Made by a program: the position numbers and the translations under genes
The notes under the pieces: generated by a model
Database searches by the model: none
Seen by the model: only the letters and a program-made list of their open reading frames with translations
What the model was told of the DNA's origin: nothing
Assembly: GCA_965214705.1 (NCBI GenBank)
Contig: CBDCCI010000002.1
Coordinates: 2,400,001-2,464,000 of the forward strand
Length of the DNA stretch: 64,000 bases
Origin: Alphaproteobacteria bacterium
Lineage (GTDB): Bacteria > Pseudomonadota > Alphaproteobacteria > UBA828
Reading direction: 5' to 3'
Shown: in pieces, positions 17,568 to 36,039 of the stretch
Layout of the letters: each line of letters begins with the position of its first letter
How positions within the stretch are numbered: position 1 is the stretch's first letter

Positions 17568-17990
17568 TAGAGCACAATCCTATCTGACTGAATCGAAAGG
17601 GATTCCCAAGGCGTCTGGTTTGTGCTTCACACTGTCTGCCGGGAGGGAGGCCGGCAGACATGTCGAAAGCGCTTTCCCTTGATCTTCGGGTTCGGGTCCC
17701 TGAGGCGGTGGCCGAGGGCGTGAGCCACCGCGCCGTTGCGGCGCGCTTTGGTGTGAGTGCGGCGAGTGTCAGCCGTTGGTGCAGGCGGGCACGTGTTGAG
17801 GGCGAGTCTCGCCCGAGAGCACTGGGCGGAGACCGTCGCTCCGCTCGCATCGAAGCGCATCGTGCGCTGATCCTCGACGTGCTGGCTGAGACCCCCGACG
17901 TCACCATCGAGGAGTTGCGCCGCCTGCTCGCCGGGCGCGGGCTCGACTTCGGCTATGGCACGATCCAGCGCTTCCTCGTCCGCCAGGATA
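17568..17990 (+). mobile_element. Truncated IS630-family element (left end plus N-terminal HTH ORF from 17660)
   Basis: TAGAGC-type end; MSKALSLDLRVRV..ARFGVSAASVSRW..GGDRRS..PDVTIEEL. Confidence 0.75.
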
Positions 17991-18450
17991 TGGCCTGCAG
18001 CGCGACAGTGGCGGAAAGTATCGACATACAGGGTGCCGGAACCGGCGATACGGCACCGAAACCGCGCGTGGTCGTGGTGGACTACGGGGTCAAGGGAAAC
18101 ATCGTCGACAACCTCGTTCGCAGGGATATCGACGTCACCGTCGTGCCGGCAGAAGCCTCCTCGAGGGACATTCTGGCGCACGATCCCGACGGTATTCTGC
18201 TGTCCAACGGTCCCGGCGATCCGATGGCCGTGGCGCCGTACACCGTTCCCATGATCGAGACCCTGCTCGAGCGGAAGCTGCCGTTCTTCGGCATCTGCCT
18301 GGGGCATCAACTCCTGTCCCTGGCGCTTGGCGGAAAGGTGACCAAGATGCCTTTCAGCCATCATGGCGCCAATCATCCGGTTCTGGAGAAGGCCAGCGGC
18401 CGTGTGGTGATCACCAGCCAGAATCACGGTTTCGTCGTCGACCGCGACAC
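17990..18450 (+). pseudogene. carA: Internal fragment of carbamoyl-phosphate synthase small subunit (class I GATase domain)
   Basis: VVVVDYGVKGNI, DGILLSNGPGDP, FGICLGHQLL, HHGANHPV, ITSQNHGFVVD; lacks the N-terminal domain and the C-terminal HPE. Confidence 0.8.
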
Positions 18451-21318
18451 CTTCCCTCGCATCGCGCCACGCGCCGTCCGAGACGTAGTCGAGCGCCGCC
18501 TCCTTGGGCTCGGAGCGCGACCAGCGCTCGCCAAGGTAAGCCCTGATGTCACTGTCCAGGACCGGGCGCTCCACCTCGTCCTCGGGCCGTCTTCCCGCGA
18601 TGTCGAAGGCGAGCTGCGACCAGTTGACATAGACGTCGATTCCCTCGCGATGCCGAGTCGCGGCGGGATAGATCGTCTCTCGCGCCGGACGGTCGTCCAC
18701 CAGCAGGAAGGCGCGGTCTACGGTCAGCCCCTGGGCCGAGGCGATGGTCATCGCATAGCCGTAGTCGAGCCGGACGTTGTCGTGCCAGTCGCGGATCTCG
18801 TCGTGGCGGAACGCGACACGCCTGCCGTCGTCCGTGCGCGCCGTGATGTGGACGGAAGGCTCAGCCTTCGACTCGTTCCCCGAACTCTCGGACGCGCTCG
18901 TCTTGCCGTCCCTGCGTCCGCCGGCTAGCCGGTTCCGGGCCTTGCGTGACACTGCGGTGTCGTCGCCACGCCGGACTTCGAGGTCTTCCACCGTGACGAC
19001 GGTGCCGTTGAAGAGCTGCTTCTCCCACTGCGTGGAGCCGATGCGGATGCGATCGCCCACGGCGATCTCCAGCGGCTCCGTCACGCGCCCGTCAAGGCCC
19101 CGGCTCACCTCGATCACGGCACGCTTCGCATCGGGCGTCTGCGCAAGCACCCGCAGCCGCATGAGCCAAGACAGCGCCCGCGCCTCGGCCCGCGTGCGAG
19201 CCAGCACCACCGTCGAGGCATCGGGCTCCGCACGCACATGCCGTTCCCAGTCCTCGACGAGCTTGGTCAGGGTCTTCTCTTCGTCGTGGCAGAGATGGAA
19301 GCGGTTGCGCAGATGCCACGCCTCGATCGCCTGCTCTGCCTCTCCGTCCCTGAGCGCCTCCGACACCGCCACCTGCCACGGCGTGAACAGGGGTTTCTTC
19401 TCCATCGCCTCGTAGTCGGCGAGAATCGCGTCGCGCTCCTGGGGATTGGTCAGCCCTGCCCGGAAGCGCGCCTGTTCCGGCGTCTCCTTGTGGACGTGGA
19501 CGAGAACGTCCTCGAGGTCCGCCTTCTGGCGCCTGATGCGGTCGACGCGGACGCTACCGGCGATGTCCCGGATCAGCCTGAGTCCCGGCCCTGCCTCCAC
19601 CGGCTGCTGTTGCCGCGTGTCGCCAGCGAACACCACCTTCGCCTCGTGGCGCTCCGAGAGCTGCAGGATATGATGCGCCTGTCGCGTGGACAGCATCCCC
19701 GCCTCGTCCACCACGATCAGCGTGCGCTTGCCGATCTCCACCTGGTCCTTCGCCGCGAGCTTCAGCAGCTTGTCCACGCAATAGGCACGCGCATCGCAGT
19801 CGTCGCCGAGGGCCACGGCGGTGCGCCAGGCCACGGCGGTCGGCACGATCTCGTAGCCGTGCTCCTTGTGAAGGTCGGTGATGGGCCTGAGCGTCGTGGT
19901 CTTGCCCGAGCCCGCAGCGCCCTCGATTACTGCCACCCGTCCGCCCTTCACCGTGGCATGGTGGATCGTCAGCGACTGCTCTTGGCTCAGCGGATATCCC
20001 TGCTCCAGCAGGGTCTCCAACCTCTCCTTCACCGCCCCTTCCGGCAGGCCGTGGCCGGTATCTTCGGCCATGGCCTCGGCCATGTCGCGCACCGCCTGCT
20101 CGAGGCCGAGATTGTGGCGCGTGGAATAGACCTCCGTGTGGGCCATGCCGGCGCGGGACTCGGCCGTCGGCTTCTTGGGCTCCAGCCGCTCGATCTCCGG
20201 ATTACGGCGCAGCCGCTCGATGGCCGTCCCCACCGCCTCCCGGCCCATCAGACCGGCCGCCGCGTTCGCCGCCGCCTCCACCATGTCCGGGCGCCGGAAC
20301 ACCGCCTCCTCGCGAGCGAGATGGGCGGGGAGATCGTCGAGCCGGTCGGTCAGCTCCCGGATTTCTTCACGGTCGATCCTCACCTCATGGCCGGTCACCG
20401 AGGCGATCAGCGCCTCGCGCTCGCAGAAACCCTCGGCCTCGCCGCGCCAGCGGCGGTGCCTCACCTCCGGGTCATTGTCGTGCGACTTCCCCTCGCGCGT
20501 GAGCTTGTTCACCCCCGCCATGCGGGCAGCATTGCCCAATGACGGGATGCCCAGCTCCCCCGCCCTGGCGACGATCGCCTTCCTGCGCTTCGACCAGAAG
20601 GATTGCAGGTCCTCCGGCATGCCCACGATGCGCGTGAACTCCACGTTGGGACCGTACTGCTGCATCCTGACGCCCAGGTTCTGTTGCAGCTCCCACGCCA
20701 CATAGGCCCGGAACAGGGCGCCCGCCGCCTTCTTCCAGTTGTAGACCGGGTACTGGTGATGCGCCCGCCACTTGCCGTCCTCGCGGGTCCTCGCGAGATT
20801 GAAGATCGTGCAGTGGACGTGAAGCTGCGGGTCGTTCTCCCTGCTGGTACCGTGGACGAAGGTCGCGCCCATCAAGTCCGCCTCCAACGGCCGGGTCACC
20901 CCCTTCTCGCTCACGCGGGTGTAGCTGCAATGCTTCAGCACCGAGTCGTCGAGTGCCGCCCTGGCGGCGGCCACGGCCATTGTCTCGATCCGTTCGCGCA
21001 TCTCCGGCTCTGCGATGGCCCACAGTGCCGACACGCTCTTGTCCACCGAGAACGTCATGTCGATGCCGGGGGAGCGGTCCGGGTTGCCGGCGCGCTGCAC
21101 CAGCTTGCCGGATCCATCAGGAGCGAAGCCCGAGTAGAGGCGATGGAAGTGGCCGCTGTCGACCTTTGCCCCATCCTCCAGACCGAACAGGCCCTTCGGG
21201 TTGAACCAGGTGCCGTCCGGCTCCTCGGCCGCCGTGTAGTACTCGTTGGGGTGCCGGAACGAGCGTTGCTCTCCAGGTAGTATTCGGCAGACGCCATCTG
21301 ACCGATGGTCGCTACCAT
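18450..21318 (-). pseudogene. MOBF (TrwC/TraA-like) conjugative relaxase-helicase; 5' frameshift near 21268 and truncated C-terminus
   Basis: N-terminal AEYY/NEYY tyrosines, DMTFSVDKSVS, HUH motif HGTSRENDPQLHVH, helicase motifs GAAGSGKTT, VVDEAGM, YAMTIASAQGLTVD. Confidence 0.85.
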
Positions 21319-22062
21319 GGCGGCAGGTTCCCGAACCGTTGGGCGAACGCGTTCATGACCGCCGGGGCCTGACCAGCAATACCCGACGCCGGCAGCCTTT
21401 CATGGCCAGCTGCGACTGCGTGAAGGGGCACGCCAAGTCCTTGTACAGGTGTTATATCGTTCGGCCTCCATGGCCAGTCAGGCGGCTCCGTTTCGCTCCC
21501 GCAAGCGTCAGCTTGCACAGGTGTGGCGGGTTACTTTCTCTCTCGCGTGCTTCACTCACCACGAGATACATCATGTAGCGAGTCGCTCGGCGGGAATAAC
21601 AAGAGATAGTATCGGTCCGGGCGCTTCACCTGAACGGTGCACCTTCCTGGATGGCAAGGTGGGGCGGCATGGCGCTTATTCGTAGCTGCTTGAGAGTGTC
21701 GAGATAATCGGGGCGCGGGGAGAGAGTGGCGAAGCGCTCCGATTCAGCGGGGATGAGCGACAAGGCGATGGCGGCCGCCTTGGCGAATCCGGTGCGAACC
21801 ACCATGAGCGCCATCGATGCGCAGACCGGGTGCGAGAGCGCAGGCTCGAGCGATCATTCGAGGGCGTAGCGCTGACAATTGGCGTCTGGCGGTGCAGTGG
21901 CGAAGTGACACGGAAGGGCGTTGGCCACAGGCAGGGAGGGCGGAGCGCGGGCGATGGCGGAGCGCAGCAACGCTTGACGTATCGCGACACGATACGGGAA
22001 GGATGATGCTGGCGCATAGCGCCGAGCGCGGGATGGCGATGCCGTCCGCCCCGCCGTCCGAC

Positions 22063-22503
22063 AATCAAGGGTCGCAAACGCCACATCCTCACCGACACCG
22101 GCGGCCTGTTGGTTGCCGCTCAGGTCCACGCCGCCAACATCCAGGATCGCGACGGCGCTCCCTCGGTGCTTGCGTCCATCCGCCACGCCTTCCCCTGGCT
22201 GCGTCACGTCTTCGCCGATGGTGCCTATGCCGGCCTCAGGCTCGCGGCGGCTCTGGAGCGGATCGGTCGGTGGACCCTGGAGATTGTCCAGCCCCGGCTG
22301 GTACGCGAGGGTTCGATATCCTGCCGCGCCGCTGGGTGGTCGAGCGCACACTGGCTTGGTTGAACCGCAATCGACGGCTCGCCAAGGACTTCGAGGCCAC
22401 CGTCGCCACCGCCCAAGCGTGGCTCTTCATCGCCAGTGTTCAACTCCTCACCAGAAGACTGGTAAGATACTGAAAATCAATATCTTATTATAGGCCAGAC
22501 TCT
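22063..22503 (+). pseudogene. IS5-family (IS1031/IS427-like) transposase C-terminal remnant
   Basis: [29 protein letters not shown], then a frameshift to [25 protein letters not shown]. Confidence 0.8.
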
Positions 22504-22615
22504 TAGACTATACTCTTCGCGGTCGTTGTCTGCTGGGACATTCGCTGTGAGACAACACCTGGAGTCATGGCGAGATCAGCGGCCTTGATCGGTGTCTTCG
22601 CGGGCGAACCCCTGA

Positions 22616-23350
22616 TCAATAGCCGAGAACGCTGTAGTCGCCGTTCACGATCAGGCGAATCGAGACGTAGAGGCCCAGCAGGGCGAACAGCACCCACGGG
22701 CAATTCAGCGCCCAGATATAGATGTACATATCCTTTCGGCCGAGGCGGCTTTGTCGATTGGCCACGAAGAAGCTGACCCAGTAGACCGACGTCGCGTAGG
22801 TCAACTGCCAGAATATCATCGCTCCCATAATGCCGGCGACGAGGGCGGGCAAGAAATCGACGGTGAAGGCGGCAAAGAGGATCAGCGTCGGTACCGGCGT
22901 TACGAAGCCGTTGGCGATATCTACGTTGTAACCGTATGTGCGCCGGTCCGCGTAGGAACTGTCGAACTGGGAATACGTGGCCCAGACGTCCGCCCACATC
23001 GTCGACGACAATATTCGCGTCAAGGGAACCCTTCCAGTAAGGAATTCGGCGGCTGGTGTCCGGCCCGTTTCCCGCCGGCGTTCGCGCCAGTATTGGGCGC
23101 GCTTCTCGATGTAGTCGCGGTTGAAGAACAGGCATATCTCCCAATGGCAGATCACCAGATTGATGGAAAAGAAGAGGATCAGCAGTGCATGAATGACGTC
23201 GAAATCCCCGCGGACGCCGTAGCGCGCACCGATGCCGGACGCTGTCAGAATTGCGATGACCAGCCCCGTGAATACGACCGGCGCAATCGCCAACCGAGTC
23301 CGGTGGGTGTCGCGACCCGAACGGGTTTGCGCGGCTTGCTTTTCGGCCAT
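22616..23350 (-). CDS. EBP/EXPERA-like membrane protein, putative sterol delta8-delta7 isomerase
   Basis: Several TM helices; WATYSQFDSSY resembles EBP WKEYxxxDSRY; QLTYATSVYW and LNCPWVLF resemble the EBP C-terminal motifs; located in the sterol cluster. Confidence 0.6.
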   Translation of the reverse strand: MAEKQAAQTRSGRDTHRTRLAIAPVVFTGLVIAILTASGIGARYGVRGDFDVIHALLILFFSINLVICHWEICLFFNRDYIEKRAQYWRERRRETGRTPAAEFLTGRVPLTRILSSTMWADVWATYSQFDSSYADRRTYGYNVDIANGFVTPVPTLILFAAFTVDFLPALVAGIMGAMIFWQLTYATSVYWVSFFVANRQSRLGRKDMYIYIWALNCPWVLFALLGLYVSIRLIVNGDYSVLGY

Positions 23351-23538
23351 GTGGTCCCATCCTCTCTGGCGCTGCGGCGTTGCCTCTCGCCCCATTGTAC
23401 CCTGTGGAAAGTTCGACGCCCCGAACAAGGGCGCTACGCCTGGGACTCCGTGGATATCGGCGTCATGAAGCGAGGCATCGGAGTTTCCCATGGCTTTCCG
23501 GTCTTGGGGACGACGTGCGGCTCTGGCAGAATGTGCCC

Positions 23539-24570
23539 ATGAATCGCACCTCCGCCACCCGATCGAAAGCGCGCTCCCTCGCGGGCCTCGCCCCGGACGA
23601 AGTAAAGTCCACGGTCGATGGATACACCGAAATCTTTGACGCCGGCCTGGAGCACAGGAAAGAGCATTATCGCTCGTTCGTGAGTCGCTACTACGACCTG
23701 GCGACCGACTTCTACGAGTTCGGTTGGGGCCAATCCTTTCACTTCGCACCCCGCAGCCGGGGCGAGAGCTTCAAGGCATCGCTGCTCAGACACCAGCATT
23801 TTCTCGCTGAAAAGCTGTCCCTGAAGCCGGGTATGCAAGTAATCGATCTGGGATGCGGGGTCGGCGGACCGATGGGCAATCTGGCCCGTCATTTCGGGGC
23901 GAGCTTTGTCGGCGTCAACAACAACGCCTACCAGATCGAGCGCGCAAGACTGCACACTCGGGATGTCCAGTCGTTATGTCGCTTTATTCACAGTGACTAC
24001 ATGGAGATTCCCGACGACGACGACCGCTACGATGCCGCCATGGCGATCGAGTCCATGCCCCACGCACCCGACAAGACAGCGGCGTTCCGCGAGGTCTTGC
24101 GCGTGCTGCGTCCGGGGGCCTGTTTCGCGGGCTACGAGTGGTGCGTTACCGACATATTTGATACCGGCAAGACGGAGCACCGGCGAATAAAAAACGATAT
24201 CATGGCCGGGAATGGGCTGCCGGATATCGCGACCACGTCGGAAGTTTCCGCCGCATTGCAGACGGCTGGATTCGAGCTCCTGGAAGCGCGCGACCGCGCA
24301 CCCGAAGCGGACCCGGAGATGCCGTGGTACCGTTCCTTGCAGGGCCGCGACCTCAGTCTTTCGAGTATTCCGCGCACGCCGGTCGGCCGCGTTCTGACTA
24401 ATTTCACTTTGCGGGTGGGAGAACGGCTGCGGCTCTTTCCCGAGGGCGCCCGCGCAGTCAGCACGCTCCTGAATGCGGGAGCGGACGCGCTGGTGGACGG
24501 CGGCAAGTCCGGCGTCTTCACGCCGATGTTCTTTTTCCTGGCCCGCAAACCCGGGCGCCCGCGCGACTGA
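23539..24570 (+). CDS. smt: Sterol C24-methyltransferase (ERG6/SMT family)
   Basis: SMT region I FYEFGWGQSFHF, SAM motif DLGCGVGGP, region III IESMPHAP, region IV PGACFAGYEW, C-terminal GVFTPMFFFLARKP. Confidence 0.92.
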   Translation: MNRTSATRSKARSLAGLAPDEVKSTVDGYTEIFDAGLEHRKEHYRSFVSRYYDLATDFYEFGWGQSFHFAPRSRGESFKASLLRHQHFLAEKLSLKPGMQVIDLGCGVGGPMGNLARHFGASFVGVNNNAYQIERARLHTRDVQSLCRFIHSDYMEIPDDDDRYDAAMAIESMPHAPDKTAAFREVLRVLRPGACFAGYEWCVTDIFDTGKTEHRRIKNDIMAGNGLPDIATTSEVSAALQTAGFELLEARDRAPEADPEMPWYRSLQGRDLSLSSIPRTPVGRVLTNFTLRVGERLRLFPEGARAVSTLLNAGADALVDGGKSGVFTPMFFFLARKPGRPRD

Positions 24571-24629
24571 ACGAAGCGGGCCTTCGTCCGCGCGGCGCTG
24601 CGCGAGACCACCCATACTCTGGACGGGGA

Positions 24630-27600
24630 TCAGGCGGCAGCCGCTTCGGGCGGGGGTGGCGACGTGTCGGCGGCACACGGAGCGTGGGCGGCGAGACCCA
24701 GCCGCTGGCGGCGGCGCTGCTCGTAGAGGGCGAGCGCGTGCAGCGGGAAATACTGTCGATACAGCACGTAATCCAGGAGCGCCGTGCGGAAGAAGACGCC
24801 CGCCATGTCCTGCTTGGGCCATGTCCCGTCCGCGTCCTGTGCGTCGAGCAGAAAGCGGGCGCCCCGCGAAATCGCGGTCCAGTTCGATTCGCCCGCCTCG
24901 AGGAGCGCGATCAACGCCCACGCGGTCTGGATGACCTGGCTTTCGTCGTGCGGGACATACCGGCCGGTCAGGCATCCGCTGTGGTGCTCGCCCCATCCGC
25001 CGTCTTCTCGCTGGCGCTCCAGCAGCCAGCGGCAGGCCGAGCGAAGCGCCGGATCGCCGGGGCCGGCCCTGGCGGCAAGAAGACCCCTGACCCCGAAGAG
25101 GGTGCCGTAAATGAATTGAACTCCCCATACGCCGCGCCACGACCCGTCGCTTGCCTGGGTCCAGCGAAGCCAGGCACCGGCCCTGGACATGGCGCCCGTC
25201 ACCGCTCCGTTCGCGATTTGCGGAACGTCCTCCATACAGGCGGCGAGCGCCGCGAGGCAGGACGCGGTGCACTCGACATAGGATTGCTCGGTCATCGAAT
25301 CGCCGAACATCTCGGCCGGATTCATCCACTCCAGACCGAAAGCCGAGCGTCGCGCCTCGTAGCTGCCGAAGCCGCCATCGCGGTTCTGGCAGCGCAGCAT
25401 GAACCCGACCGCATCGCGCAACGCGCTTGCGTGCGCAGCACCGCGACCGGCGGCGTGAAGTCCGAGCACCGCTTCCGCAGTGCAGTCGCTCACCGGCCAG
25501 CCGTGCCATCCTCCGGCAAAGCACCAGCCGCCCCTGGGGTCGGTTCGATAGGCCTCGCGAAACCCTTCGAAGCTGGCGGCGATCTGTTCCCCGAGCAGGA
25601 AGTCGGCGCCGCGCTGCAGCGCGTCCCCTACCCCGCCGAACGCGGGCACCGCCGCCAGCGCCTGCAAGGCGAAGCCGCTGTCCCACGAGGCGCTTCTCGC
25701 GCCGACGACACGCGCACCCTCTTCCTCGTCTTCCCAGATCCAGTCGTCCAGCTTCGCGAGCGCCTGGCGCAGATCGGCGTCGTCCGGATCGCGCAGCCAC
25801 AGGGCAAGCATGTTGAGAAGGCCGCTCACCGGAGAGATGCTCGTATGGCTGGTGGTCTGCAGCTCCCATCTGATCTGCCGGACGATCGCCTCCGTGCATC
25901 GGGCACGCAGGCGTTTGCCGTGGAGCCGATTGAACACGCGCGCAATCTTGTATCCAACCTTGAGCCACACGCTCGGCCGCGCGTAGAGGTCGGCCTCCCG
26001 CAGGCGATTGCGGGCGGCGGAGAAATCGACCTCGGCAAAGCCATGGGGGTACAGCTCCTCCCGCAACGACGCGATCGCGGGCGTGACGGGCGCCTGGAAG
26101 CGGTGCGGGTAGATCGCCGCCATGGCCATGTAGATGAGCCGGGTATGGCAGTACCAATTCGAAGGATGCAGGGGCAAGCGGCGCGGCAGGCTCCACAGTT
26201 CCGGCAGAACGGCGTTGACCCCGCGCCAGTCGTAGAGGTTCAGCAGCGCCAGCCAGAACTTTCCCCAGCTCGGAATGCCCACGATCCCCTCGGCCTGGAT
26301 GAAGCGCCGGGCCGGCTCGACCAGCGGATCGTCCCGCTCGACCCCGAGCAGCCTGGCCGCGACGTAGACCAGGGCGGTGACGAAGAGGTGGGGCGAAGAG
26401 TGCTCGTGCAGACCCCACGAGCCCGCTTCGAGACGGGTCCGTTCGAACGAGCGCAGCACGCGCCGGCGCCGGCCGGGCTCGAGCGGCCGCCCGATGATGT
26501 GGTGCAGCAGCACATATTGCGCGGTGAGCATGGGGCACCAGACCATCTCGCCCTCCCAGCCGCCATCCTCGCCCTGGAGGCTCAGGAGGTGCGCGGTCGT
26601 GCTCCCCAGAGCCGGACCGGCATCGGGCGCCTCGGAGTCCTTCGGCCGGCCGGACCCGGAAGCGTGGGGCCGCGGCGGCATGGAGTGCAAAAGTGCGCGG
26701 GCCAGGCTGTCCAGGGCTCGCTCGTCATTCCGCCCGCCCTGGCGTCTCGACTGGCGTAACTGCAGAGCCCAGCGCAGGAGCCACAAGAGACGAACGGTGA
26801 GAGCCCCGAAGATCTTCAGGCCCCGACGCGGAGCGAACCGGCGCAAGGAGAGCGGAATCTCCACGGCCGCCGCACGGGCCGCCGTTGCGAAAAACGCGAG
26901 ACCCATCTCGAGCGCGGATCGGTCTTCGCAGGCGAGTATCCGCGTGGTCCGGTCCCGGTAATAGGAGTTTGTCCGCAATCCTCGGTAGACCGCGTGTCTC
27001 ATCGCCACCGCCTCGGCCCGATGATCGGCAAAGACCTCGTAGAGCCCCATGGCGAGCAGCTCCGGCACTTGGGTGGCCCGGAAACGCCCGGCGGCGAACT
27101 CGCGAAAGCTGCCGCTCTCGGCGAGGGCAAGCGCGTCACCGAAACCGAGGGTCATGCCGACCGCCGTCATGGGATGGTAGTGCCCGGCCGCGTCGCCGAT
27201 CAGCACACGACGCGGGGTACCGTATGTGACTCGCGGCCGCAGCTGATTGGCCGCAACGTGGAATTGCCCCGCCCGCACCGCTTCGACGAACCCCGGCCTG
27301 AGAGCTTCCGGCAGCAGAACGGCATGGGATTCGGTCAGGAAGCCGATCCGGTCCTGGCGTGTCCAGCGGTCCAGCGGAACGTCGACGATGATCCGGACGC
27401 AACCCTTTGCCAAACCGTATGCGAGAATCGGCCCCGGCCCGCCGAGCAGCACATGCCCGTGACCCTCGAAGGGCAGGCTCACGTCGCTCACCGTGATCCC
27501 CAGCATCCGCGAGCAGAGCATCGGGTCTGTCGACAGGCCCAGGGATTGGCGCACGATCGACGCCCGGCCGTCGGCGCCGACAATCCGCGCGGCGTCGAGG

Positions 27601-28043
27601 GTGTGAACCGTGCCGTTGTTGCTGTAGGACAGCCGCTCGTCTTCGACCGCATTCACCCGCGCATGGGTGAAGAAATCCACATCCGCCTCCTTCTCGACGG
27701 CTTCCCGCAGTGTCGAGACGAGCAAGGCGTGTTCGCAAGCCAGACCCTGCGAGCCATTCGTGTAGGGAAGGACGATCGGCTCCGAGCCGTCTTCCGGGAA
27801 CACCACGAAACCCCTGCCCGTGGCGCTGCGGGGCAGGGTGTCGAGCCCGATCCCGATGTCCTGCAGTATCTGTACCCCAGGTGGATGCAGCCATTCGCCC
27901 GCCAGGCGCTCTGACCCCTTGGGATTCGCTTCGAGCAGAACCACCCGGGCGCCCTTCCGCGCGTGAGCGAGCGCGCACAGGCTCCCGACCGGCCCCGCGC
28001 CGACAATGGCCACGTCGTAACGCCGCGACGCGGCGCCGCTCAT
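24630..28043 (-). CDS. Squalene epoxidase - oxidosqualene cyclase fusion protein (~1137 aa)
   Basis: N-half: IVGAGPVG, RLAGEWLHPPG, GADGRAS, IGDAAGHYHPMTAVGMT (SQLE motifs). C-half: QW repeats, WYCHTR, catalytic HGWPVSDCTAE (OSC type, not SHC DXDD). ATG overlaps the CYP51 stop (ATGA). Confidence 0.9.
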   Translation of the reverse strand: MSGAASRRYDVAIVGAGPVGSLCALAHARKGARVVLLEANPKGSERLAGEWLHPPGVQILQDIGIGLDTLPRSATGRGFVVFPEDGSEPIVLPYTNGSQGLACEHALLVSTLREAVEKEADVDFFTHARVNAVEDERLSYSNNGTVHTLDAARIVGADGRASIVRQSLGLSTDPMLCSRMLGITVSDVSLPFEGHGHVLLGGPGPILAYGLAKGCVRIIVDVPLDRWTRQDRIGFLTESHAVLLPEALRPGFVEAVRAGQFHVAANQLRPRVTYGTPRRVLIGDAAGHYHPMTAVGMTLGFGDALALAESGSFREFAAGRFRATQVPELLAMGLYEVFADHRAEAVAMRHAVYRGLRTNSYYRDRTTRILACEDRSALEMGLAFFATAARAAAVEIPLSLRRFAPRRGLKIFGALTVRLLWLLRWALQLRQSRRQGGRNDERALDSLARALLHSMPPRPHASGSGRPKDSEAPDAGPALGSTTAHLLSLQGEDGGWEGEMVWCPMLTAQYVLLHHIIGRPLEPGRRRRVLRSFERTRLEAGSWGLHEHSSPHLFVTALVYVAARLLGVERDDPLVEPARRFIQAEGIVGIPSWGKFWLALLNLYDWRGVNAVLPELWSLPRRLPLHPSNWYCHTRLIYMAMAAIYPHRFQAPVTPAIASLREELYPHGFAEVDFSAARNRLREADLYARPSVWLKVGYKIARVFNRLHGKRLRARCTEAIVRQIRWELQTTSHTSISPVSGLLNMLALWLRDPDDADLRQALAKLDDWIWEDEEEGARVVGARSASWDSGFALQALAAVPAFGGVGDALQRGADFLLGEQIAASFEGFREAYRTDPRGGWCFAGGWHGWPVSDCTAEAVLGLHAAGRGAAHASALRDAVGFMLRCQNRDGGFGSYEARRSAFGLEWMNPAEMFGDSMTEQSYVECTASCLAALAACMEDVPQIANGAVTGAMSRAGAWLRWTQASDGSWRGVWGVQFIYGTLFGVRGLLAARAGPGDPALRSACRWLLERQREDGGWGEHHSGCLTGRYVPHDESQVIQTAWALIALLEAGESNWTAISRGARFLLDAQDADGTWPKQDMAGVFFRTALLDYVLYRQYFPLHALALYEQRRRQRLGLAAHAPCAADTSPPPPEAAAA

Positions 28044-29449
28044 CGGAAGACGCTCGGCTGCGCGCAGCGACGGTAGCGGACCCGGCACGGTCTCTCGGGT
28101 CCCGTCACCCAGCTGCCGTAGTTCGGACGCGGAAACGCGCCGCTGGGAGTGAAGTCGAAACGATCGAGCAGAACGGTCCAGATCGCCTTGAGCTGCATGT
28201 AGGCGAAGTTCTTACCCATGCACGCGTGCTTGCCGCCGCCGAAGCCGATCAGGGCGTAGCGGTGTTGCCTGTCCTCGCTGGCGGGAGGCGCGAAACGGTC
28301 GGGGAAGAAGCGCTCCGGGTCGGCGAATATGTGGGGCAAGCGGTGAGAGACCGCCGGCGACACCATGGCCATGGAGCCGGCGGGCACGACACGGCCTCCG
28401 TAGCGCAGGGGTTCGAGCACCTTGCGGATCAGCAATATCAGCGGCGGGTGCAGCCGCTCGCACTCGCGGACGGCATTCTCCAGAGCCGGCTGGCGCTGGA
28501 GACTGTCGATGCTCATGCTCCCCGCTTCGCGATAGACGTCCTGCACCTCGTCTCTTACCCGCGCCAGGTACGCCGGCGCCCGGAGCAGCTCCAGACCGGT
28601 CCAGGTCGCGAGCACCGCACTGGTGTGCTGGCCCGCGAACAGCACCGTCAGCAGGATCCCCGTGATCTCGTCGTCGCTCAGGGCGCGGCCGCTCTTGTAG
28701 CGGGCGTTCATGAGCGTCTGCATGAAGTCGTCGGGGCTGGCCCCCGCATTCCGGCGCGCCGCCATGATCCCGCCGAAGAGCTCCGCCACCCGTCGCCGGG
28801 CCCTGTCGCGCTTTCGATGCGACGCAACGGGAAGCCTGGGAAGAAAGAATCCCAGGGTGTTAATGCCCTTCTGCAGGTCGTGGTAGGTCTCGGCAAAGCC
28901 GGTATCCACCCGATCGCGGACTTCCTGTCCGATCAGGCAGCGGCTGGCGATCTTGACCGTGAGCTCGTTCATCGCGTGCGGCAGATCGATTTCCCCATCC
29001 TCGCCCAGGGCGTCGGCGAACTGCCGCGCCTCATCGAACATGACGAGGGCGAACCTGCGCATTGCCGCCTCACGGAGCGCTGGAAAGAGAAAGCCCAGCT
29101 GCTCCGCCATGATGTCGGGGGAGGTGTCGTAGGCCACGCCGCGCCCGAAGATGGGCACGGTGAAGCGGTAGACGGCCTTGGCGTTCAACTGCTCCTCGGG
29201 CGTCCTGAAATAGAAGTCGTGGGCTTGGGGACCGGAGAAGAGAACGAAAGCGCGGGTACCGAGCCGGAAGCGGAAGAGCTCACCGTGCTCGCGCCAGCCG
29301 CGGCTCAACATGGCGACCGGATCTCTCTGGAACTCCGGCAAATGGCCGATCAGCGGCCAGCGGCCCGCAAGCTCGGGAAGGGGCTCGTCTGCCCGCGGCG
29401 GCAGATTCGCCGTAGGCAGGGTCGCCATGCTGTCGGTTCGGTTGGCCAT
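28040..29449 (-). CDS. cyp51: Sterol 14-alpha-demethylase (cytochrome P450 CYP51)
   Basis: YRFTVPIFGRGVAYD, I-helix LFAGQHTS, ECERLHPP, haem motif FGGGKHACMG. Confidence 0.92.
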   Translation of the reverse strand: MANRTDSMATLPTANLPPRADEPLPELAGRWPLIGHLPEFQRDPVAMLSRGWREHGELFRFRLGTRAFVLFSGPQAHDFYFRTPEEQLNAKAVYRFTVPIFGRGVAYDTSPDIMAEQLGFLFPALREAAMRRFALVMFDEARQFADALGEDGEIDLPHAMNELTVKIASRCLIGQEVRDRVDTGFAETYHDLQKGINTLGFFLPRLPVASHRKRDRARRRVAELFGGIMAARRNAGASPDDFMQTLMNARYKSGRALSDDEITGILLTVLFAGQHTSAVLATWTGLELLRAPAYLARVRDEVQDVYREAGSMSIDSLQRQPALENAVRECERLHPPLILLIRKVLEPLRYGGRVVPAGSMAMVSPAVSHRLPHIFADPERFFPDRFAPPASEDRQHRYALIGFGGGKHACMGKNFAYMQLKAIWTVLLDRFDFTPSGAFPRPNYGSWVTGPERPCRVRYRRCAQPSVFR

Positions 29450-29457
29450 CTCCGCTC

Positions 29458-30558
29458 TCAATGGATGAAGGGCAGCATCGCGAAGCGCGCCCGCTGCGTG
29501 TAGCGCTCCCACAGCTCGCCGTACTTGGCGCGGCAGCGGCGCTCGTCGCGTCTCGAACGGTGCCACAGCAAGCCCGCTAGCCACGCCGGCAACAGGAAGG
29601 GAGCCCAGGACGTAAGCCCGGTGGTCAGGGCGAAGGCGAGGTAGACGCAGATCTCGCCGGTGTAGTTGAGGTGCCGGCCGATGCCCCAGAACCCGGAGAC
29701 CAGGAGGCGCCCGTCCAGGGTACGGGCGGGCTTGCCCCAGATCCTAACGTTGGAATCGCGCTTGAAGCGGTGCTTCTGCTGATTGGACCCGCGGAAGAGC
29801 CAGAAGCCGAAAACGAAGAGCACGACGATCCCGGCGGCGGCGGCCGGAGACAAGGGCTCCGGTGCGTGAACCAGCCACCAGCCGGGGAGACAGTAGAAGA
29901 AGGGCACCAGCACGTAATCGCCCCAGACCAGCATCCATCCGAAGCGCTCGCGGACGATGTCCCAGGTATGGATCATCCCCTGTTCGAACTGGAAGTAGTT
30001 GAGCACGTAGAGGAAGGTGAAGGTCTGGTAGAGCATCATCGCCAGGGTCAGCTCGCCGTAGGTCTCGTACTGCACGGCGGCAAACGATGCGTTGAAGAGC
30101 GCTAGGCCGATGAGGGAGGGGCAGTAGCTGAAGAGCTTGATATCCAGCCCGAGCCAGGATGGAGCGGCGTCCACCCCGTAGAAGAAGTCCCGCCATGATC
30201 TGGGCGATGCATGAGGCTTTCGCACCCCGCGCAGGTAGAGCCAGCCGGAGAGGGCGAACGCGAATCCGTTCGCCACGACGAACAGGGCGAGCAAGTGGGT
30301 ATGCAGCACCGAAAGGGAGAGCACGCCGGAGGCTTGCGCGCCGCACGCCGCAATCATGACGATCAGATAGAGCGCGAGGCCGTTGAGCTTGTAGACGCGC
30401 TCGTTCCCGTCGGCATCCGGGCCCGTGATCCGACGACCCGGCAGCAGCAGCGAAGCCACGAAGAGGAGGGCGATGAACCCCAGCACCATCGCCGCCGCCT
30501 CGAGCAGGGTCTCGCCCGAGAGCGCCGACGAGAGGTTGAGCGCTTCAGGCGGCGGCAT
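29458..30558 (-). CDS. ERG24/DHCR7/LBR-family sterol reductase (probable C14 reductase)
   Basis: DIVRERFGWMLVWGD, NQQKHRFK, LLVSGFWGIGRHLNYTGE, RDERRCRAKYGELWERY. Confidence 0.9.
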   Translation of the reverse strand: MPPPEALNLSSALSGETLLEAAAMVLGFIALLFVASLLLPGRRITGPDADGNERVYKLNGLALYLIVMIAACGAQASGVLSLSVLHTHLLALFVVANGFAFALSGWLYLRGVRKPHASPRSWRDFFYGVDAAPSWLGLDIKLFSYCPSLIGLALFNASFAAVQYETYGELTLAMMLYQTFTFLYVLNYFQFEQGMIHTWDIVRERFGWMLVWGDYVLVPFFYCLPGWWLVHAPEPLSPAAAAGIVVLFVFGFWLFRGSNQQKHRFKRDSNVRIWGKPARTLDGRLLVSGFWGIGRHLNYTGEICVYLAFALTTGLTSWAPFLLPAWLAGLLWHRSRRDERRCRAKYGELWERYTQRARFAMLPFIH

Positions 30559-31642
30559 CGCCGCTCTCCGACCCGCGCGCCAGATGTTCCTGCCACTTGC
30601 GCACGGTCACTTTCTGAAAGGCCCTGACCACCGGATTGAACTCGACAGGACGGGCGTCCCAGTGTCTTTCGTATCCCTCCTGCTCCGCCTCCAGCGCGAA
30701 CCGGTCCTGGGTGAGCAGGGGGGCGATGAGCAGGCGATTGGAGACCTTCATGACCGCGGTCATGGCGAAACGGGGAATGCGCACCGGCAGCAGAGGTACT
30801 TTCAGCGACTTGAAATAGAACAGGAAGAACACCCGGCTGGTGCGCTCGTCGACCGGCAGCACGAAGAGCCAGTGCTTTATTGCGTCGTCGGTGTTCGACC
30901 ACTGGTAGGGGTACTCGTAGCAAAGCTCCATGCGGTTGGTGTTGAGCCGCCGATGATCGACGAAGAGGCCCGAGATGCGCCCGCGCCCCACGTGCGTGTC
31001 GTAGGCGAGATGCACGTTGTCGCCGAGGGTCTCGCAGCGGGTGAGGGTGGCCCCGTCGAAGGGCCGGTAGCGGCGGTGCAGGTGTGCGTGGGTGAAGTCG
31101 CTCACATTGTCGATCACCATCGAGTGGTGTGCCGACCAGGTGAAACAGAGCGGCACGCAGGCCCAGCGGCCGGATCCCTCGAGCTCAGGAATGTCCGGAA
31201 TCCGGCGCTCCTCCGCCAGCGCCGGATCTCCCGGGAAGAGCCAGATCAGACCGTAGCGGACCTTCACCGGATAGGTCTTGAGCGCAAGATTCGGAAAGCT
31301 TCGCCCCTCGCGATCATGGGGCACCCCGGCGGGACGCCCCTTCCCGCCATACTCCCAGCCATGGTAGGCGCAGACGAGCCGGCATCCCTGCACGTCGCCC
31401 AGGGAGAGCTTGAGCTGGCGATGCGCGCAGCGATCCTCGACCGCCTGGAAGGTGCCGTCCTTTCCCCGGAAGAGCGCGATGGAACGCTTCCAGAAGACGA
31501 CCTCGATCACCGTCTCCGGCTTGATCCGGCGCAATTCCTCGACCGGATACCAGTAATTCGGGTCCATGCCCGCGGCGCGAGCCTGCTGGCGCAGGTTGCC
31601 GGCGTCCTCGAAGCCGGGCGGCGCGGCGGGCGCCGCCCTCAT
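30545..31642 (-). CDS. sdmA: Rieske non-haem iron oxygenase, SdmA-like sterol C4-methyl oxidase
   Basis: Rieske CAHR..CAYHGW; mononuclear Fe site DNVSDFTHAHLH; position between an SDR and sterol genes. The sdmA label is inferred from context. Confidence 0.7.
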   Translation of the reverse strand: MRAAPAAPPGFEDAGNLRQQARAAGMDPNYWYPVEELRRIKPETVIEVVFWKRSIALFRGKDGTFQAVEDRCAHRQLKLSLGDVQGCRLVCAYHGWEYGGKGRPAGVPHDREGRSFPNLALKTYPVKVRYGLIWLFPGDPALAEERRIPDIPELEGSGRWACVPLCFTWSAHHSMVIDNVSDFTHAHLHRRYRPFDGATLTRCETLGDNVHLAYDTHVGRGRISGLFVDHRRLNTNRMELCYEYPYQWSNTDDAIKHWLFVLPVDERTSRVFFLFYFKSLKVPLLPVRIPRFAMTAVMKVSNRLLIAPLLTQDRFALEAEQEGYERHWDARPVEFNPVVRAFQKVTVRKWQEHLARGSESGDAAA

Positions 31643-32267
31643 GGCGCGCTCCCGCCTGCCATCATCCGCATGCCCTGGTCCGGCGCGGGATCACCCTCCT
31701 CACGCGTAACATGCCGACTCGCGGCGTCCTCGCACGGGCGCTTCGCGTGCGGGTTCGCGATCTTGTTGCGGCCGTAGTGGAACGCATAGGCCTCATGAAC
31801 CGCGGCACGGAGGCCGGTCGGCCGATAGCCGAGCTCCCGTTTCGCCTTGGAGATGTCGGCGTGGCGGCACTTTCGCAACAGGCGTATGGCGCCGGGGGTG
31901 AAGCGCTGGGGAAAGCCCGGGTGAACCCGACTCAGATAGAAGCTCGCGATTTCGGCAAAGGTTAAGGGTTGGGCAGGCTCTCTCTCGAGAGCCTGCCCAA
32001 CCCTTTTGAACGAAGCCGCGGGCCACGAGAGGCGAAGTTGAGCTATGTGGAAAGTGCGCTGATGTCAGCGTCAGGCGGCATCCACCGGCAGCAGAGTTGC
32101 GCATAAAATCGACGCTCGCGCCGGTCTTTCGGCAGGCATGCGGGCGCACGCTGCGAGGACTGAGCGGGGTGTGAGCCGAGGGCTGTCAGCCCGGCTCAAG
32201 CGGAGACAGGTTCGGTCGTGCGTCGGCGCTTTGGCGCCGTTGCGCGGGGCCGAAGCGAGCGGGCGTC

Positions 32268-33509
32268 TCACGGTTTCCCCCTGTGGGTCGGCGGCAGCGC
32301 CGGCGGGCCGCGCGTCGAGCGGGGCTCATGGCGGCGGCGGATTTCGCGGACGAGGCGCATGACGCCGCCGCAGTGGGGGCAGGCCACGGGCGCGGTGCCG
32401 ATCTCGGGCTCTTCGTCGGGCTCGGCCCGAGCGCCGTCCACGCTTCCCTCGGGGGCGGCGCAGCCGAGGGCGCCGAGAGCCTGGCGTGCTCTCTCCAGCG
32501 TGCTGGCGCGGCAGCCGTTGGCGAGGATGCCGAAGTAGCGAGTGCGGTGCATGCCGTCCGGCAGGACGTGCCTCAGGAAGCGGCGGATGAACTCGTCGGC
32601 GCTCACGGTGGCGATGCCGTAGCGCGGCTTTCTCTGCCCCGGCGCCTTGGGCTTTCGGTGGCGGAAGGAGACCGTCTCGCCGTCGAAGGAGACGATGCGG
32701 CTGTCGGAGATGGCGATCCTGTGCGTGTAGTGCGAGAGGTACCGGAAGACCTGCTCAGGCCCGCGGAAGGGCCGCTTGGCGTAGACCACCCAGTCCCTGG
32801 CCCGGGCGGCGGCAAGCGTGGCGTGGAACTCGCCGGGATTGGCGAGGTGGGCGACGGTGCCGTGGAACTCCAGGTCCCCCCGGCCGTGGGCGCGGGCGAG
32901 CTCCTCGAGGAAGAGGCGGCGGAACAGGCTGCCGAGGACCTTGACGGGGGCGAGGAAGGTGGTGCTCCCCGTCTTCCACTCGCCACTGTCTACGTCGAAG
33001 CCCGCGTTGGGCACGACCACGTGCAGGTGCGGGTGGAAGCGGAGCTTCTGATCCCAGGTATGGAGGACCGCGGTGCCGCCGATGCGCATGCCGCCGTGGC
33101 GGGGATCGGCGGCGATGGTGCGCAGGGTCTCGGCGACGGCCCGGAAGAGGATGTCGAACACCACCCTGCGGTTGCAGAAGGCAATGGCGGCAACCTCCTT
33201 GGGCAGGGTGAAGACCACATGGAAGTAGGGCACCGGCAGGATGTCCCCGGCGCGCTCCTCGCTCCAGAGGTTGGCGGCGAGACCCTGGCAGGTGGGGCAG
33301 TGGCGGTTGCGGCAGGAGTTGAAGAGCGGATGCTCGCGCCCGCAGCCCTCGCAGGCGTACATGTGGCCGCCGAGCACGGCGGTGCGGCACGCCTCGATGG
33401 CGCCCATGACCTTGAGCCGGGCGGCGTCGATGCGCCCTTTGTGGCGCTCACGGAAAGCGGCGCCGGCGCGGCGGAAGATCTCCGCCACGCCCGCGCGTTC
33501 GGCCTCCAC
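32268..33509 (-). CDS. IS91-family (HUH/Y2) transposase
   Basis: Zn-binding CRT..CEGC..NSCRNRHCPTC; HUH LHTW..HPHLH; YLSHYTHR; RYFGILAN. Confidence 0.9.
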   Translation of the reverse strand: MEAERAGVAEIFRRAGAAFRERHKGRIDAARLKVMGAIEACRTAVLGGHMYACEGCGREHPLFNSCRNRHCPTCQGLAANLWSEERAGDILPVPYFHVVFTLPKEVAAIAFCNRRVVFDILFRAVAETLRTIAADPRHGGMRIGGTAVLHTWDQKLRFHPHLHVVVPNAGFDVDSGEWKTGSTTFLAPVKVLGSLFRRLFLEELARAHGRGDLEFHGTVAHLANPGEFHATLAAARARDWVVYAKRPFRGPEQVFRYLSHYTHRIAISDSRIVSFDGETVSFRHRKPKAPGQRKPRYGIATVSADEFIRRFLRHVLPDGMHRTRYFGILANGCRASTLERARQALGALGCAAPEGSVDGARAEPDEEPEIGTAPVACPHCGGVMRLVREIRRRHEPRSTRGPPALPPTHRGKP

Positions 33510-33515
33510 GCGCCG

Positions 33516-34394
33516 TCAGTTGCGCAACGCTGCGAAGCCTGAGATCGGGTGGTCGAGGCCCTCGAACATCTTGCCGGTGACGCGGGCGTAGTGACGGGTC
33601 GTGTTCGCGCTTCGATGGCCGAGCATGTCCCGGATCACCTCGATATCGCCGCCGCGCTCGAGGAGATGGGTCGCCGCCGAATGGCGCAGGCAATGGAAGG
33701 TGTAGCTGCGGTCGAGCTCGGCAATGTCGCGCGCCCTCCTGAAGGCGGCCTGCAAGGTCTCCGTTGCGATGGGCCTGTCGAGCGAGACGCCGTAGAAGAG
33801 CCAGCTCGTCGGACGCGGCCAGATGTTCCTGTAGTAGACGCGCAAGTAGTGGATGACGATGTCCGGCAACGGTGCCATTCTCTCGGTGCCGCCTTTGCCG
33901 GAGGGGATGTGCAGCAGCTTCTTCTCCGACAGGATGTCGCCGACCTTGATGGCCAAGGTCTCGGAGATGCGGAGCCCGCCGCCATAGCCGGTGACAATGG
34001 CAGCACGGTGGCGGAGGTCGGGTGTCGCAAGGATGAGGTGCTCGACCTCCTGCTCCGACATGTAGCGCGGCAGCTTGCCGGGCTTCTTGCGGGAGCGCAG
34101 GCCGGCGACATGGTCAGGCCAGCCGAGTGTGTCGATGTAGAGGAAGTTCAGCGCGGCGAAGGAGACGTTGGTCGTGCCCGGACTGAGCCCCTTGTCGATC
34201 CGCCCCAGGTACCACTGGCGCACCTGCTCGGCGTCGAGCTCGTCCGGCGAGGCGTCGTAGTACCTGGCCAGGTTCTTGATCTCGCAGATGTAGGCCTTGG
34301 ACGTGCTCGCGGCCAGATTGGCGATGCGGAGCTGCTCCTCCATGCGCTGGCGAAGAGGGGTGACGGTGTTCGTGTCGCACGCGGTCCCGGTCAT
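33516..34394 (-). CDS. Tyrosine recombinase/integrase
   Basis: GLRISE, KGGTER, HCLRHSAATHLLE, LGH, TRHY; N-terminal TPLRQRM typical of IS91-associated integrases. Confidence 0.9.
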   Translation of the reverse strand: MTGTACDTNTVTPLRQRMEEQLRIANLAASTSKAYICEIKNLARYYDASPDELDAEQVRQWYLGRIDKGLSPGTTNVSFAALNFLYIDTLGWPDHVAGLRSRKKPGKLPRYMSEQEVEHLILATPDLRHRAAIVTGYGGGLRISETLAIKVGDILSEKKLLHIPSGKGGTERMAPLPDIVIHYLRVYYRNIWPRPTSWLFYGVSLDRPIATETLQAAFRRARDIAELDRSYTFHCLRHSAATHLLERGGDIEVIRDMLGHRSANTTRHYARVTGKMFEGLDHPISGFAALRN

Positions 34395-36039
34395 TATCGA
34401 TCTCCCTGGATCGCGACGGCGCGCCGCCGGACCGATCCGGCGACGGTCCGTCGCAGGGGTCGATGCTAACCACTGGTGATCGGGAGGCTGCTGGGGATCC
34501 GCCACCCGACGGGCGGAGCGCCACTGACGCAACCGGGAAGCGAACGCACAGAACAAACGGCACCCGCGACGCCTCGGAAATGAATGAACTCTACGCCGCT
34601 AACTCCGCGTAGCGGCTTCGTTCAAGACGAGCATGAGGCGGGTCGGAATTCGCCGGCGCGGCCGCGGGACGCCGGAGACCTCCTCGTAGAGATCCAGGAT
34701 ATCCGAGATGGTCTGGTACTCGGTGCTGAAGATGTACTTTTCGCCCGAGCGACCGTGGTGCATGCACAACACGTGCCCTTCGACGATGTCGCGCGCCGCG
34801 ACGAACTCGAAACCGCCATCGACGTAGGCACGGAGCTTGCCGTTGGTGTAGTCGCACAGGGTTCTTCCCAGTCGCGAGGGGAAGAAGTCGGCGCCCCCCA
34901 CCACCGCACAGCACGTCGCGACCACCACGTCCTGCCCCGATGCCGCCGCGCGCCAGCACTCCTGCTCGACGAGCGACTTGCTGCGCTCGTAGGGCATCGT
35001 GCGCTCCATGGGGTAGAACTGCATGGTCTCGTTGCTGGGAGCGGAGGGATCGTCCAGGTCGTATCCGACCGCGCTGAACGAGCCCGTCACCACCACCCGG
35101 CCGGCCCCCGCCTCCCGCGCCGCCTGCAGCACGTTGCGGGTACCGAGAACGTTGCACTCAAACACGTCGCGGCGATGGGCGCGGTTGCCTTCGATGGTCG
35201 AGACGTAGGCCGCGCAGTGATAGACGCCCTGACATCCCGTGATCGCCCGCCTGATGTCATCCAGATCCCGAATGTCGCCGAACGCGCGTTCGACCTCGAG
35301 ACCTTCCAGGCCCTCGTTGTTGTCCTCGTGTCTCAACAACACTCGGACCCGCACGCCCTCGTCGAGCAGCCGGCGCACGAGGTTGGCGCCGACATGCCCG
35401 GCCGAACCGGTAACGAAGACGGGCGGCATCGAAGATCCCGCCGGCATGCTCGATTCCGAAGTCATGGATGCCGGATTCCGTCAAGCGGAACGCGGGGCCG
35501 ATCCCATTCCGCGGGATGTTCGCAAGGTCTTACAGACACCGTCGCGCGCCCGCCGGCCGGCGTCAAAATAGCCCCTGCGGCGAAGCCAAGCCGTGCCCGT
35601 TCGCGCTCCCACATACCGCGAATTCTCCATGTCTGTCCCTCCATGTTCGGTAAGCCCGCGGCACCGACCGACCGGTACGAATCCAGACAGGGAAAAATCT
35701 ATGCGATTTAGTCACATAGCGTCCAAGAAAATACACTCATAGCGCTCATAAGTTATGCCAATGTATCGCACTGCCGCGTCGTGCTTCTGCGTGCTGATGA
35801 TCTCCATACTCGTCCAGACCCCTTGGCAAGGTCTGTTGGATATACCGAATCCCTCCGCCGATGAGATTGCCATTGCGGTCTCCTTCGGCGTTCTGGCCAA
35901 TATCAATGTCAGTTCCCTGCAAACCGCCGAAGACATGGAATGGGTCTGCGACCTCGTAACTGAAGCCGAGGGTCAGCCCCTCAGAGCCCTGCTGAATGTT
36001 CGAGTGCTCCCACACCAGGCTGATGTGAATATAGAAAAA

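Follow-up and report, generated by a model that had tools for sequence, protein, structure and literature searches.

A sterol C-24 methyltransferase gene in a sponge-symbiont-type sterol cluster with an interrupted sdmB

How many methyl groups would a bacterial sterol methyltransferase add to the sterol side chain, and from which residues can the number be read? The question is raised by a 64,000-nucleotide stretch of an Alphaproteobacteria genome of the UBA828 lineage (the window; positions 2,400,001 to 2,464,000 of contig CBDCCI010000002.1, assembly GCA_965214705.1), in which an intact, stop-free open reading frame (ORF) encodes a sterol C-24 methyltransferase (SMT) of 343 amino acids. A preliminary description of this DNA had placed the phenylalanine of the YEFGWG motif at the position of Tyr81 of yeast Erg6 and had proposed that the enzyme may yield C28, C29 or C30 side chains. 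Which bacteria make which side chains matters, because steranes with alkylated side chains, and 24-isopropylcholestane in particular, serve as biomarkers of early animals and algae. We consider it probable that the gene encodes a functional S-adenosylmethionine (SAM)-dependent C-24 SMT of the kind found in bacterial symbionts of sponges and corals, forming C28, maybe C29 and not C30 side chains, in a known type of cluster whose sdmB gene was recently broken by an insertion sequence (IS).

A methyltransferase in a published type of sterol cluster

The protein carries the Pfam domain Sterol_MT_C (PF08498) at 73.6 bits, against a curated cut-off of 21.7, and a class I SAM methyltransferase domain identified by Methyltransf_25 and Methyltransf_11, both at about 1e-16. 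Reading of the four SMT signature regions in the preliminary description was accurate: Regions I to IV are all present (Table 1), including H90, D125, G129, P133, E195 and G217 in yeast numbering. Region II fits the pattern 125-DxGxGxxGP-133 given in the preprint of Brown and Welander (10.64898/2025.12.19.695621), and mapping from the motif anchors recovers each of the 25 residues listed there as conserved among functional SMTs. A longer ORF starting with TTG at 23380 is not supported, because in the alignment the relatives start at the same methionine as 23539. In a sequence search of the PDB no true SMT structure was found, and the best matches were methyltransferases of small molecules, MitM among them; the entry called '24-sterol C-methyltransferase', 6f5z_A, matches the methyltransferase core only (1e-08).

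Relatives of the SMT were collected in two ways. Of 8,000 candidates scored in a protein search, 3,222 were relatives; the best 120 are 74-99% identical, and the few with a source name are labelled Defluviicoccus, Rhodospirillaceae, Nitrospira and similar. A genome scan with one genome per species gave 165 relatives, of which the best 80 loci were used. These 80 all lie in metagenome-assembled genomes (MAGs) from Alphaproteobacteria, Nitrospirales, Binatia, Gammaproteobacteria, Rhodothermales, Bryobacterales, Gemmatimonadota and others, many bearing sponge-symbiont names such as Porisulfidus, Poriferihabitaceae and Palauibacter.

The genes that adjoin the SMT are, in order, a fused squalene epoxidase-cyclase, CYP51, ERG24, sdmA and sdmB. 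The fusion, which converges with the SMT, matches the NCBIfam model for 2,3-oxidosqualene cyclase at 2.5e-223, and SdmA matches that for 4beta-methylsterol monooxygenase at 3.8e-120, under that model's curated cut-off. A full-length fusion accompanies the SMT in 63 of the 80 loci and all four neighbours, from the fusion to sdmA, in 60; the convergent SMT-fusion layout seen here occurs in 36 of the 80, and sdmB adjoins sdmA in 63, including the nearest relatives, loci L001 and L002. The clusters from Aplysina, Petrosia, Theonella and Nitrospira described by Brown 2023 (Nat Commun, PMC10070321) have the same arrangement; ERG1 and ERG7 queries match one gene in its Supplementary Data 1, and the Methods of its 2022 preprint refer to 'fused SMO/OSC homologs'. 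The CSGs of Kelly 2022 (Microbiome, PMC9531527) likewise share the cyclase-CYP51-ERG24 core, a reductase and a hypothetical gene flanking it, and an SMT at the 3' end on the opposite strand; they differ in that sdmA and sdmB are unannotated there, while sdmB is broken by the IS in the genome described here.

SMTs of such clusters have been published already, and the gene in the window is a new member of a published and assayed sponge-symbiont family. Ten sponge-symbiont SMTs were assayed by Brown 2023 (PMC10070321): eight methylated desmosterol, three also made C29 products and two C30 products, and two of the three C29-making enzymes are propylating SMTs with Gly at position 249. With the names in its Supplementary Table 4, four assayed enzymes could be paired with sequences in our sample. 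Two were matched by accession, namely those of Petrosia ficiformis LXNJ01014139 (L109; Y81/F83/N249) and Sarcotragus foetidus LXNI01004480 (L112, 74.3% identity; Y81/F83/D249), and two are presumed from gene order, 'Nitrospira sp., coral reef 1 of 2' (L067, 74.9%) and 'Theonella swinhoei Chromatiales 1 of 2' (L034, 71.4%), both Y81/F83/N249. The Petrosia enzyme is the nearest, 83.6% identical over 341 residues and encoded in the same kind of cluster, and differs in Region III, which reads IEATAH there and IESMPH here. The Nitrospira SMT converted desmosterol to (epi)codisterol (legend to Supplementary Fig. 3, PMC10070321), and a figure legend of the 2022 preprint terms the SMTs in the Aplysina, Petrosia and Theonella clusters functional. 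Relatives of our SMT are about 41-42% identical to Erg6 (Supplementary Data 1, PMC10070321). Saccharomyces cerevisiae Erg6 belongs to the same family and has the same four regions, with its conserved residues retained here; it differs in Tyr83, Asp249 and a single transfer (10.64898/2025.12.19.695621). The yeast residues named here follow the wording of that preprint, which describes F83Y and G249D as changes 'to the yeast residue'.

We propose the following model. The gene would encode a SAM-dependent C-24 SMT of a bacterial clade of sponge and coral symbionts, and very probably a working one. It would convert a delta-24 sterol, desmosterol for example, to a 24-methyl (C28) product, as its assayed relatives at 71-84% identity do; a second transfer, to a 24-ethyl (C29) side chain, may follow, and a third, to 24-isopropyl (C30), would not be expected. 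The SMT would belong to the sponge-symbiont sterol cluster, from which an intact sdmB appears to have been lost recently to an expanding IS.

An insertion sequence in sdmB

Is the pathway beside the SMT intact? The preliminary description had the SMT sitting beside a de novo pathway, and the sterol-synthesis genes are indeed adjacent; their pathway, however, is interrupted. An intact sdmB was not found beside sdmA in the window, the gene being split at 31960/34624 by an IS of 2,663 bp, with the break between LMLV and FAE of the intact L005 protein. The element has a palindromic end at its bases 4-45 and recurs across the 7.9-Mb assembly, whose three contigs all carry full-length copies, at least 41 in total and approximately 100% identical. 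At least 41 near-identical copies indicate an IS burst, and their identity argues that the insertion is very recent; perhaps it is not fixed.

Public sequencing runs bear on this point to different degrees. In run X1, which contains all sampled words of the stretch, and in X5, no contig joins across the IS. In run X2, one contig passes from 31957 to 34624 with no IS between them; this evidence is weak, the contig's shorter side having 25 letters only. Run X8 gives one IS-free joint of 71 letters, in contigs that are mostly 90-95% alike and represent related strains. Three public RNA runs contained 0.05 of the sampled words of the stretch.

One alternative is that the SMT is a relic, left without role or substrate in a pathway that decays under the IS burst. 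The split sdmB, the remnants of transposase, relaxase and integrase genes around the cluster and the failure of any X1 contig to bridge the IS would all fit such decay. Against this, the ORFs of the SMT and of the remaining cluster genes are intact, the identity of the IS copies puts the insertion at a very recent date, the X2 contig lacks the IS, and a paralog of sdmB, 36% identical, lies on contig 1. Selection also appears to have acted on the SMT: compared with L001 it shows seven synonymous differences and one non-synonymous, a ratio of non-synonymous to synonymous change (pN/pS) of 0.05. Against four relatives the SMT gives 0.05-0.25; the other cluster genes give 0.08-0.40. The overall range, 0.05-0.40 over seven genes against five relatives, is in line with purifying selection. 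Purifying selection and horizontal transfer of CSGs have already been reported (Kelly 2022, PMC9531527), which fits the synteny, the tree and the pN/pS values obtained here. We regard a relic as improbable, and keep to a functional SMT in a cluster that was damaged recently. As the broken sdmB demonstrates, a cluster of this type can be disabled in an individual strain, so that an SMT in a MAG should not be taken for a working de novo pathway.

Position 249 and the number of methyl transfers

How distinctive are the motifs of this SMT? We aligned 202 sequences, comprising this SMT, those of the 80 loci, a second SMT of the same genome and 120 cluster representatives, with some redundancy kept. 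YEFGWG occurs in 192 of the 202 and IESMPH in 161, F83 in 198 and Y81 in 195. Both motifs, which the preliminary description had singled out, are thus present, but neither is distinctive. Position 192 is Met in this SMT and Phe in 127 of the 202. Position 249 holds Asp in 126 sequences, Asn in 61, Thr in 10, Gly in four and Ile in one. Phylum labels cluster imperfectly on the tree, with 12 changes against 27 when shuffled.

The departures from the eukaryotic pattern in Region III (IESMPH) and at position 192 could be taken to mean that this SMT-family enzyme acts on another substrate or position, such as 4-methyl or 4,4-dimethyl intermediates or a carbon other than C-24 and C-28. In the preprint of Brown and Welander (10.64898/2025.12.19.695621), some bacterial SMTs with all conserved residues are inactive on desmosterol and 24-methylenecholesterol, and C-26 methyltransferases are described by the authors as still unidentified. 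Assayed members of the same clade do methylate desmosterol, however, and IESMPH is the norm of the clade rather than a peculiarity of this gene, so that we find a change of substrate or position unlikely and retain C-24 methylation of a delta-24 sterol as the expected reaction.

The numbering of Region I decides what its phenylalanine may imply. Y81F is the classic change by which a second methylation is gained, and for this reason it matters whether the Phe stands at position 81 or at 83. Region I is numbered 84-GWGxxFHF-91 in yeast numbering (10.64898/2025.12.19.695621), and therefore G62-W63-G64 correspond to 84-86, F61 to 83, E60 to 82 and Y59 to 81. The placement at Tyr81 in the preliminary description was two residues off: the Phe is F83, and the tyrosine at 81 is retained. 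A Phe at 81 and/or 83, as in propylating SMTs, is found here by way of F61, together with Tyr at 81, and does not discriminate. According to the same preprint (10.64898/2025.12.19.695621), yeast Erg6 with Y83F formed no 24-ethyl sterols, four assayed bacterial SMTs with F83 made 24-methyl sterols only, and F83 is neither required nor enough for repeated methylation; in the propylating background of Chl_SMT it does count, F83Y lowering C30 from 27% to 4%. Being shared by 198 of the 202 clade members, F83 has no gene-specific predictive value, and the shortcut that YEFGWG means multiple methylation, which would flag nearly all of them, is hereby corrected.

The residue useful for predicting the product would instead be N225, at position 249. 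This assignment rests on a constant offset of 24 at E195 (E171), G217 (G193), Y223 (Y199) and G268 (G244). Yeast presumably reads G-D-G at this site, which fits the invariant G224 of our alignment. The mapping is also supported by the Aplysina symbiont SMT, in which G249 is G225 (10.64898/2025.12.19.695621). All four known propylating SMTs have Gly249, which is described as necessary for C30; in Chl_SMT none of 11 non-Gly substitutions at 249 gave C30, G249A, G249S, G249N and G249T retained C29, and G249D left C28 only (10.64898/2025.12.19.695621). Chl_SMT G249N, which kept C28 and C29 and lost C30, has the same Y81, F83 and N249 as our SMT; it differs in being an engineered Chlamydiae enzyme from another branch, with the rest of its pocket selected for propylation. 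Since position 249 is Asn and not the Gly of propylating SMTs, a 24-isopropyl product is not expected.

The propylating enzyme of the Aplysina cluster, Ap_sym_SMT ('Aplysina aerophoba JGIcombinedJ30088_10000835 1 of 2'), offers the closest contrast. It occupies the same place, beside the fused epoxidase-cyclase and followed by CYP51, ERG24, sdmA and sdmB, and shares the correspondence of 249 to 225; it has Gly249 where our SMT has Asn. Its contig, JGIcombinedJ30088_10000835, was not among the 45 metagenome-contig loci returned. An F81/F83/G249 SMT was found in L014, L107 and L108, with a second SMT upstream in an Aplysina-type cluster; it is 77.6% identical to our SMT and likely the equivalent of Ap_sym_SMT. 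The gene described here therewith provides a natural test case for the residue rule, combining Y81/F83/N249 with 78% identity to an enzyme that has F81/F83/G249.

Taken with the assay numbers of Brown 2023, the Asn249 state makes a second methylation by this SMT a possibility, though one we would not count on, and a C30 product very unlikely. From the range of side chains first proposed, C28 stays, C29 stays as a perhaps, and C30 is made very unlikely by N225, the Chl_SMT mutants and the ten-enzyme assays. That the Region I Phe would bring about repeated transfer up to 24-ethyl and 24-isopropyl-type side chains, as might be argued from the drop of C30 in Chl_SMT F83Y (F83 favouring repeated transfer where the pocket permits), from the similarity to the F81/F83/G249 enzyme and from the Gly249 variant P0023 within this SMT's own clade, is improbable in view of the position of the Phe, its commonness, the Asn at 249 and the small share of assayed symbiont SMTs that went beyond C28.

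Several points weigh against our preferred reading, a functional C-24 SMT that forms C28 and maybe C29 products. With sdmB broken, the pathway may no longer supply the SMT's natural substrate in this strain. The residue rules come from one preprint and mostly from one enzyme background, Chl_SMT; the Aplysina symbiont enzyme still made C29 with G249D, and the authors allow for propylating SMTs with another residue at 249 (10.64898/2025.12.19.695621). The text of Brown 2023 and its 2022 preprint gives no methyl-transfer numbers for the enzymes matched to L034, L067, L109 and L112, whose values stand in the figures only. The AlphaFold2 (AF2) model of the SMT is moderate (pLDDT 77, Region I below 50) and too weak for the geometry of residue 225 and Region I.

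What is the relevance of the variation at position 249? In orthologs that are otherwise 62-100% identical, this residue may be Asp, Asn, Thr or Gly, beside a Gly that is invariant. On a tree of 83 rows it changed at least 14 times, where the median column changed five times and 55 of 319 columns equal or exceed it, and the Gly249 variant P0023 falls inside this SMT's own clade of eight rows (SH-aLRT 99). We speculate, tentatively, that position 249 acts as a natural dial of side-chain length in sponge-symbiont SMTs and that Asn marks an 'ethylating' grade. If so, the capacity of uncultured bacteria for C28, C29 or C30 sterols could be read directly from metagenomes, and the lineage described here would be a bacterial source of 24-ethyl sterols, possibly C-4-methylated where sdmB is broken.

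Neighbouring and unlinked genes

Table 1. Positions, strands and supporting evidence for features of the window
Feature	Positions	Strand	Basis or remark
DDE transposase	12471-14282	-	
TrwC-type relaxase with helicase domain	17627-21100	-	
244-aa membrane protein, modelled EBP/EXPERA fold, divergent from SMT	22616..23350	-	AF2, Foldseek, structural search
SMT, ERG6 family, 343 aa + stop	23539..24570	+	translation; Pfam Sterol_MT_C 1.3e-20; class I methyltransferase domains; more than 120 homologs, 74-99% identity
Region I, YEFGWGQSFHF, residues 59-69	23713..23745	+	Y59 = yeast position 81, F61 = 83
Region II, SAM-binding motif DLGCGVGGP, residues 103-111	23845..23871	+	fits pattern of preprint 10.64898/2025.12.19.695621
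Region III, IESMPH, residues 170-175	24046..24063	+	E171 = position 195
Region IV, LRPGACFAGYEW, residues 190-201	24106..24141	+	G193 = position 217, Y199 = position 223
Codon of Asn225 (= position 249)	24211..24213	+	context AGNGL
Fused squalene monooxygenase and oxidosqualene cyclase, 1152-aa ORF, convergent with SMT	24630..28088	-	Pfam SE, FAD_binding_3 (24-406), SQHop_cyclase_N/C (497-1123)
Cytochrome P450, CYP51-type sterol 14-demethylase	28040..29584	-	Pfam p450 9.3e-58; conserved cluster position; start codon uncertain
ERG4/ERG24-family sterol reductase, C-14 reductase type	29458..30558	-	Pfam ERG4_ERG24 6.8e-68
Rieske oxygenase SdmA, sterol C-4 methyl oxidase, bacterial type	30545..31642	-	Pfam Rieske + VanA_C
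sdmB C-terminal fragment, about 105 codons	31645..31960	-	collinear with intact sdmB of L001
IS inside sdmB, 2,663 bp	31961..34623		boundaries from blastn against L001 and L002; Pfam Y2_Tnp, Zn_Tnp_IS91, Phage_integrase
IS91-family transposase of the IS	32268-33509	-	Pfam
Tyrosine recombinase of the IS	33516-34556	-	Pfam
sdmB N-terminal fragment	34624..35465	-	ORF 34599-35465 = 288 aa, ending inside the IS

The gene divergent from the SMT encodes a 244-residue membrane protein that matches no Pfam or NCBIfam family, shows no match to EBP (PF05241) even at E values up to 10, and finds no EBP in a profile search against PDB sequences. Its family comprises 325 cluster representatives at E up to 0.001, and one of 40 scanned members has a sub-threshold EBP match of 16.7 bits. 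In 33 of the 80 loci a homolog is encoded no more than 10 kb from the SMT. The AF2 model (pLDDT 82.7) has human EBP (8w0r_A) as its top Foldseek match, with probability 1.00; a structural search (VIA-align) places EBP 6oht_A first (Z 15.0, root-mean-square deviation 2.7 over 178 residues), followed by the sigma-2 receptor 7m93_A (Z 11.0) and a third row at Z 8.4, and a language-model look-up also points toward the EBP fold. Human EBP has the catalytic set His76, Glu80, Glu122, Asn193 and Trp196. In the family of the 244-residue protein, E71, N216 and W219 are invariant, N216-x-x-W219 having the spacing of N193 and W196; the equivalent of the EBP histidine is not conserved. On the strength of the modelled fold, the protein is a candidate sterol delta-8/delta-7 double-bond isomerase. 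We found no literature on a bacterial EBP-type isomerase in such clusters, and the portion of PMC10202945 that deals with C-8 isomerisation names the ERG2 type only.

The surroundings of the cluster carry mobile genes on either side. Synteny between L001 and the window is confined to 21179-36031, and the relaxase is also adjacent in L002 (86% DNA identity), a hint that the cluster is carried by, or is part of, a mobile island. Further relics of mobile elements around the cluster are a DDE remnant (21817-22473, +), an integrase fragment (38007-38657, +) and a DruA fragment (36380-36745, -).

Other genes related to sterols occur elsewhere in the genome. Three genes of the SQS_PSY family would provide squalene, and a second gene of the ERG4/ERG24 family is present. 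The second SMT, unlinked to the first, lies on contig C1 at about 854,000 (L082:1495-2526, -) beside a transposase; it has 343 residues, is 42-43% identical to the first and carries MQFGWG, IESTCH and Ile at position 249. It is of the '2 of 2' type, with orthologs (63-67% identical) in the clusters of L014, L067, L011, L018, L035, L060 and L022. In L010 and L042, three SMT-family genes stand in tandem or nearby.

About 10 kb upstream of the window, at G000:C3:2388828-2390705, stands a gene resembling squalene-hopene cyclases, with 36% identity to the fusion's cyclase half, and the organism probably produces hopanoids in addition to sterols. Two convergent paralogous hybrids (40324-42705, +; 42986-45448, -) combine, in each chain, GAF, (PAS), HisKA, HATPase, receiver and winged-helix output domains.

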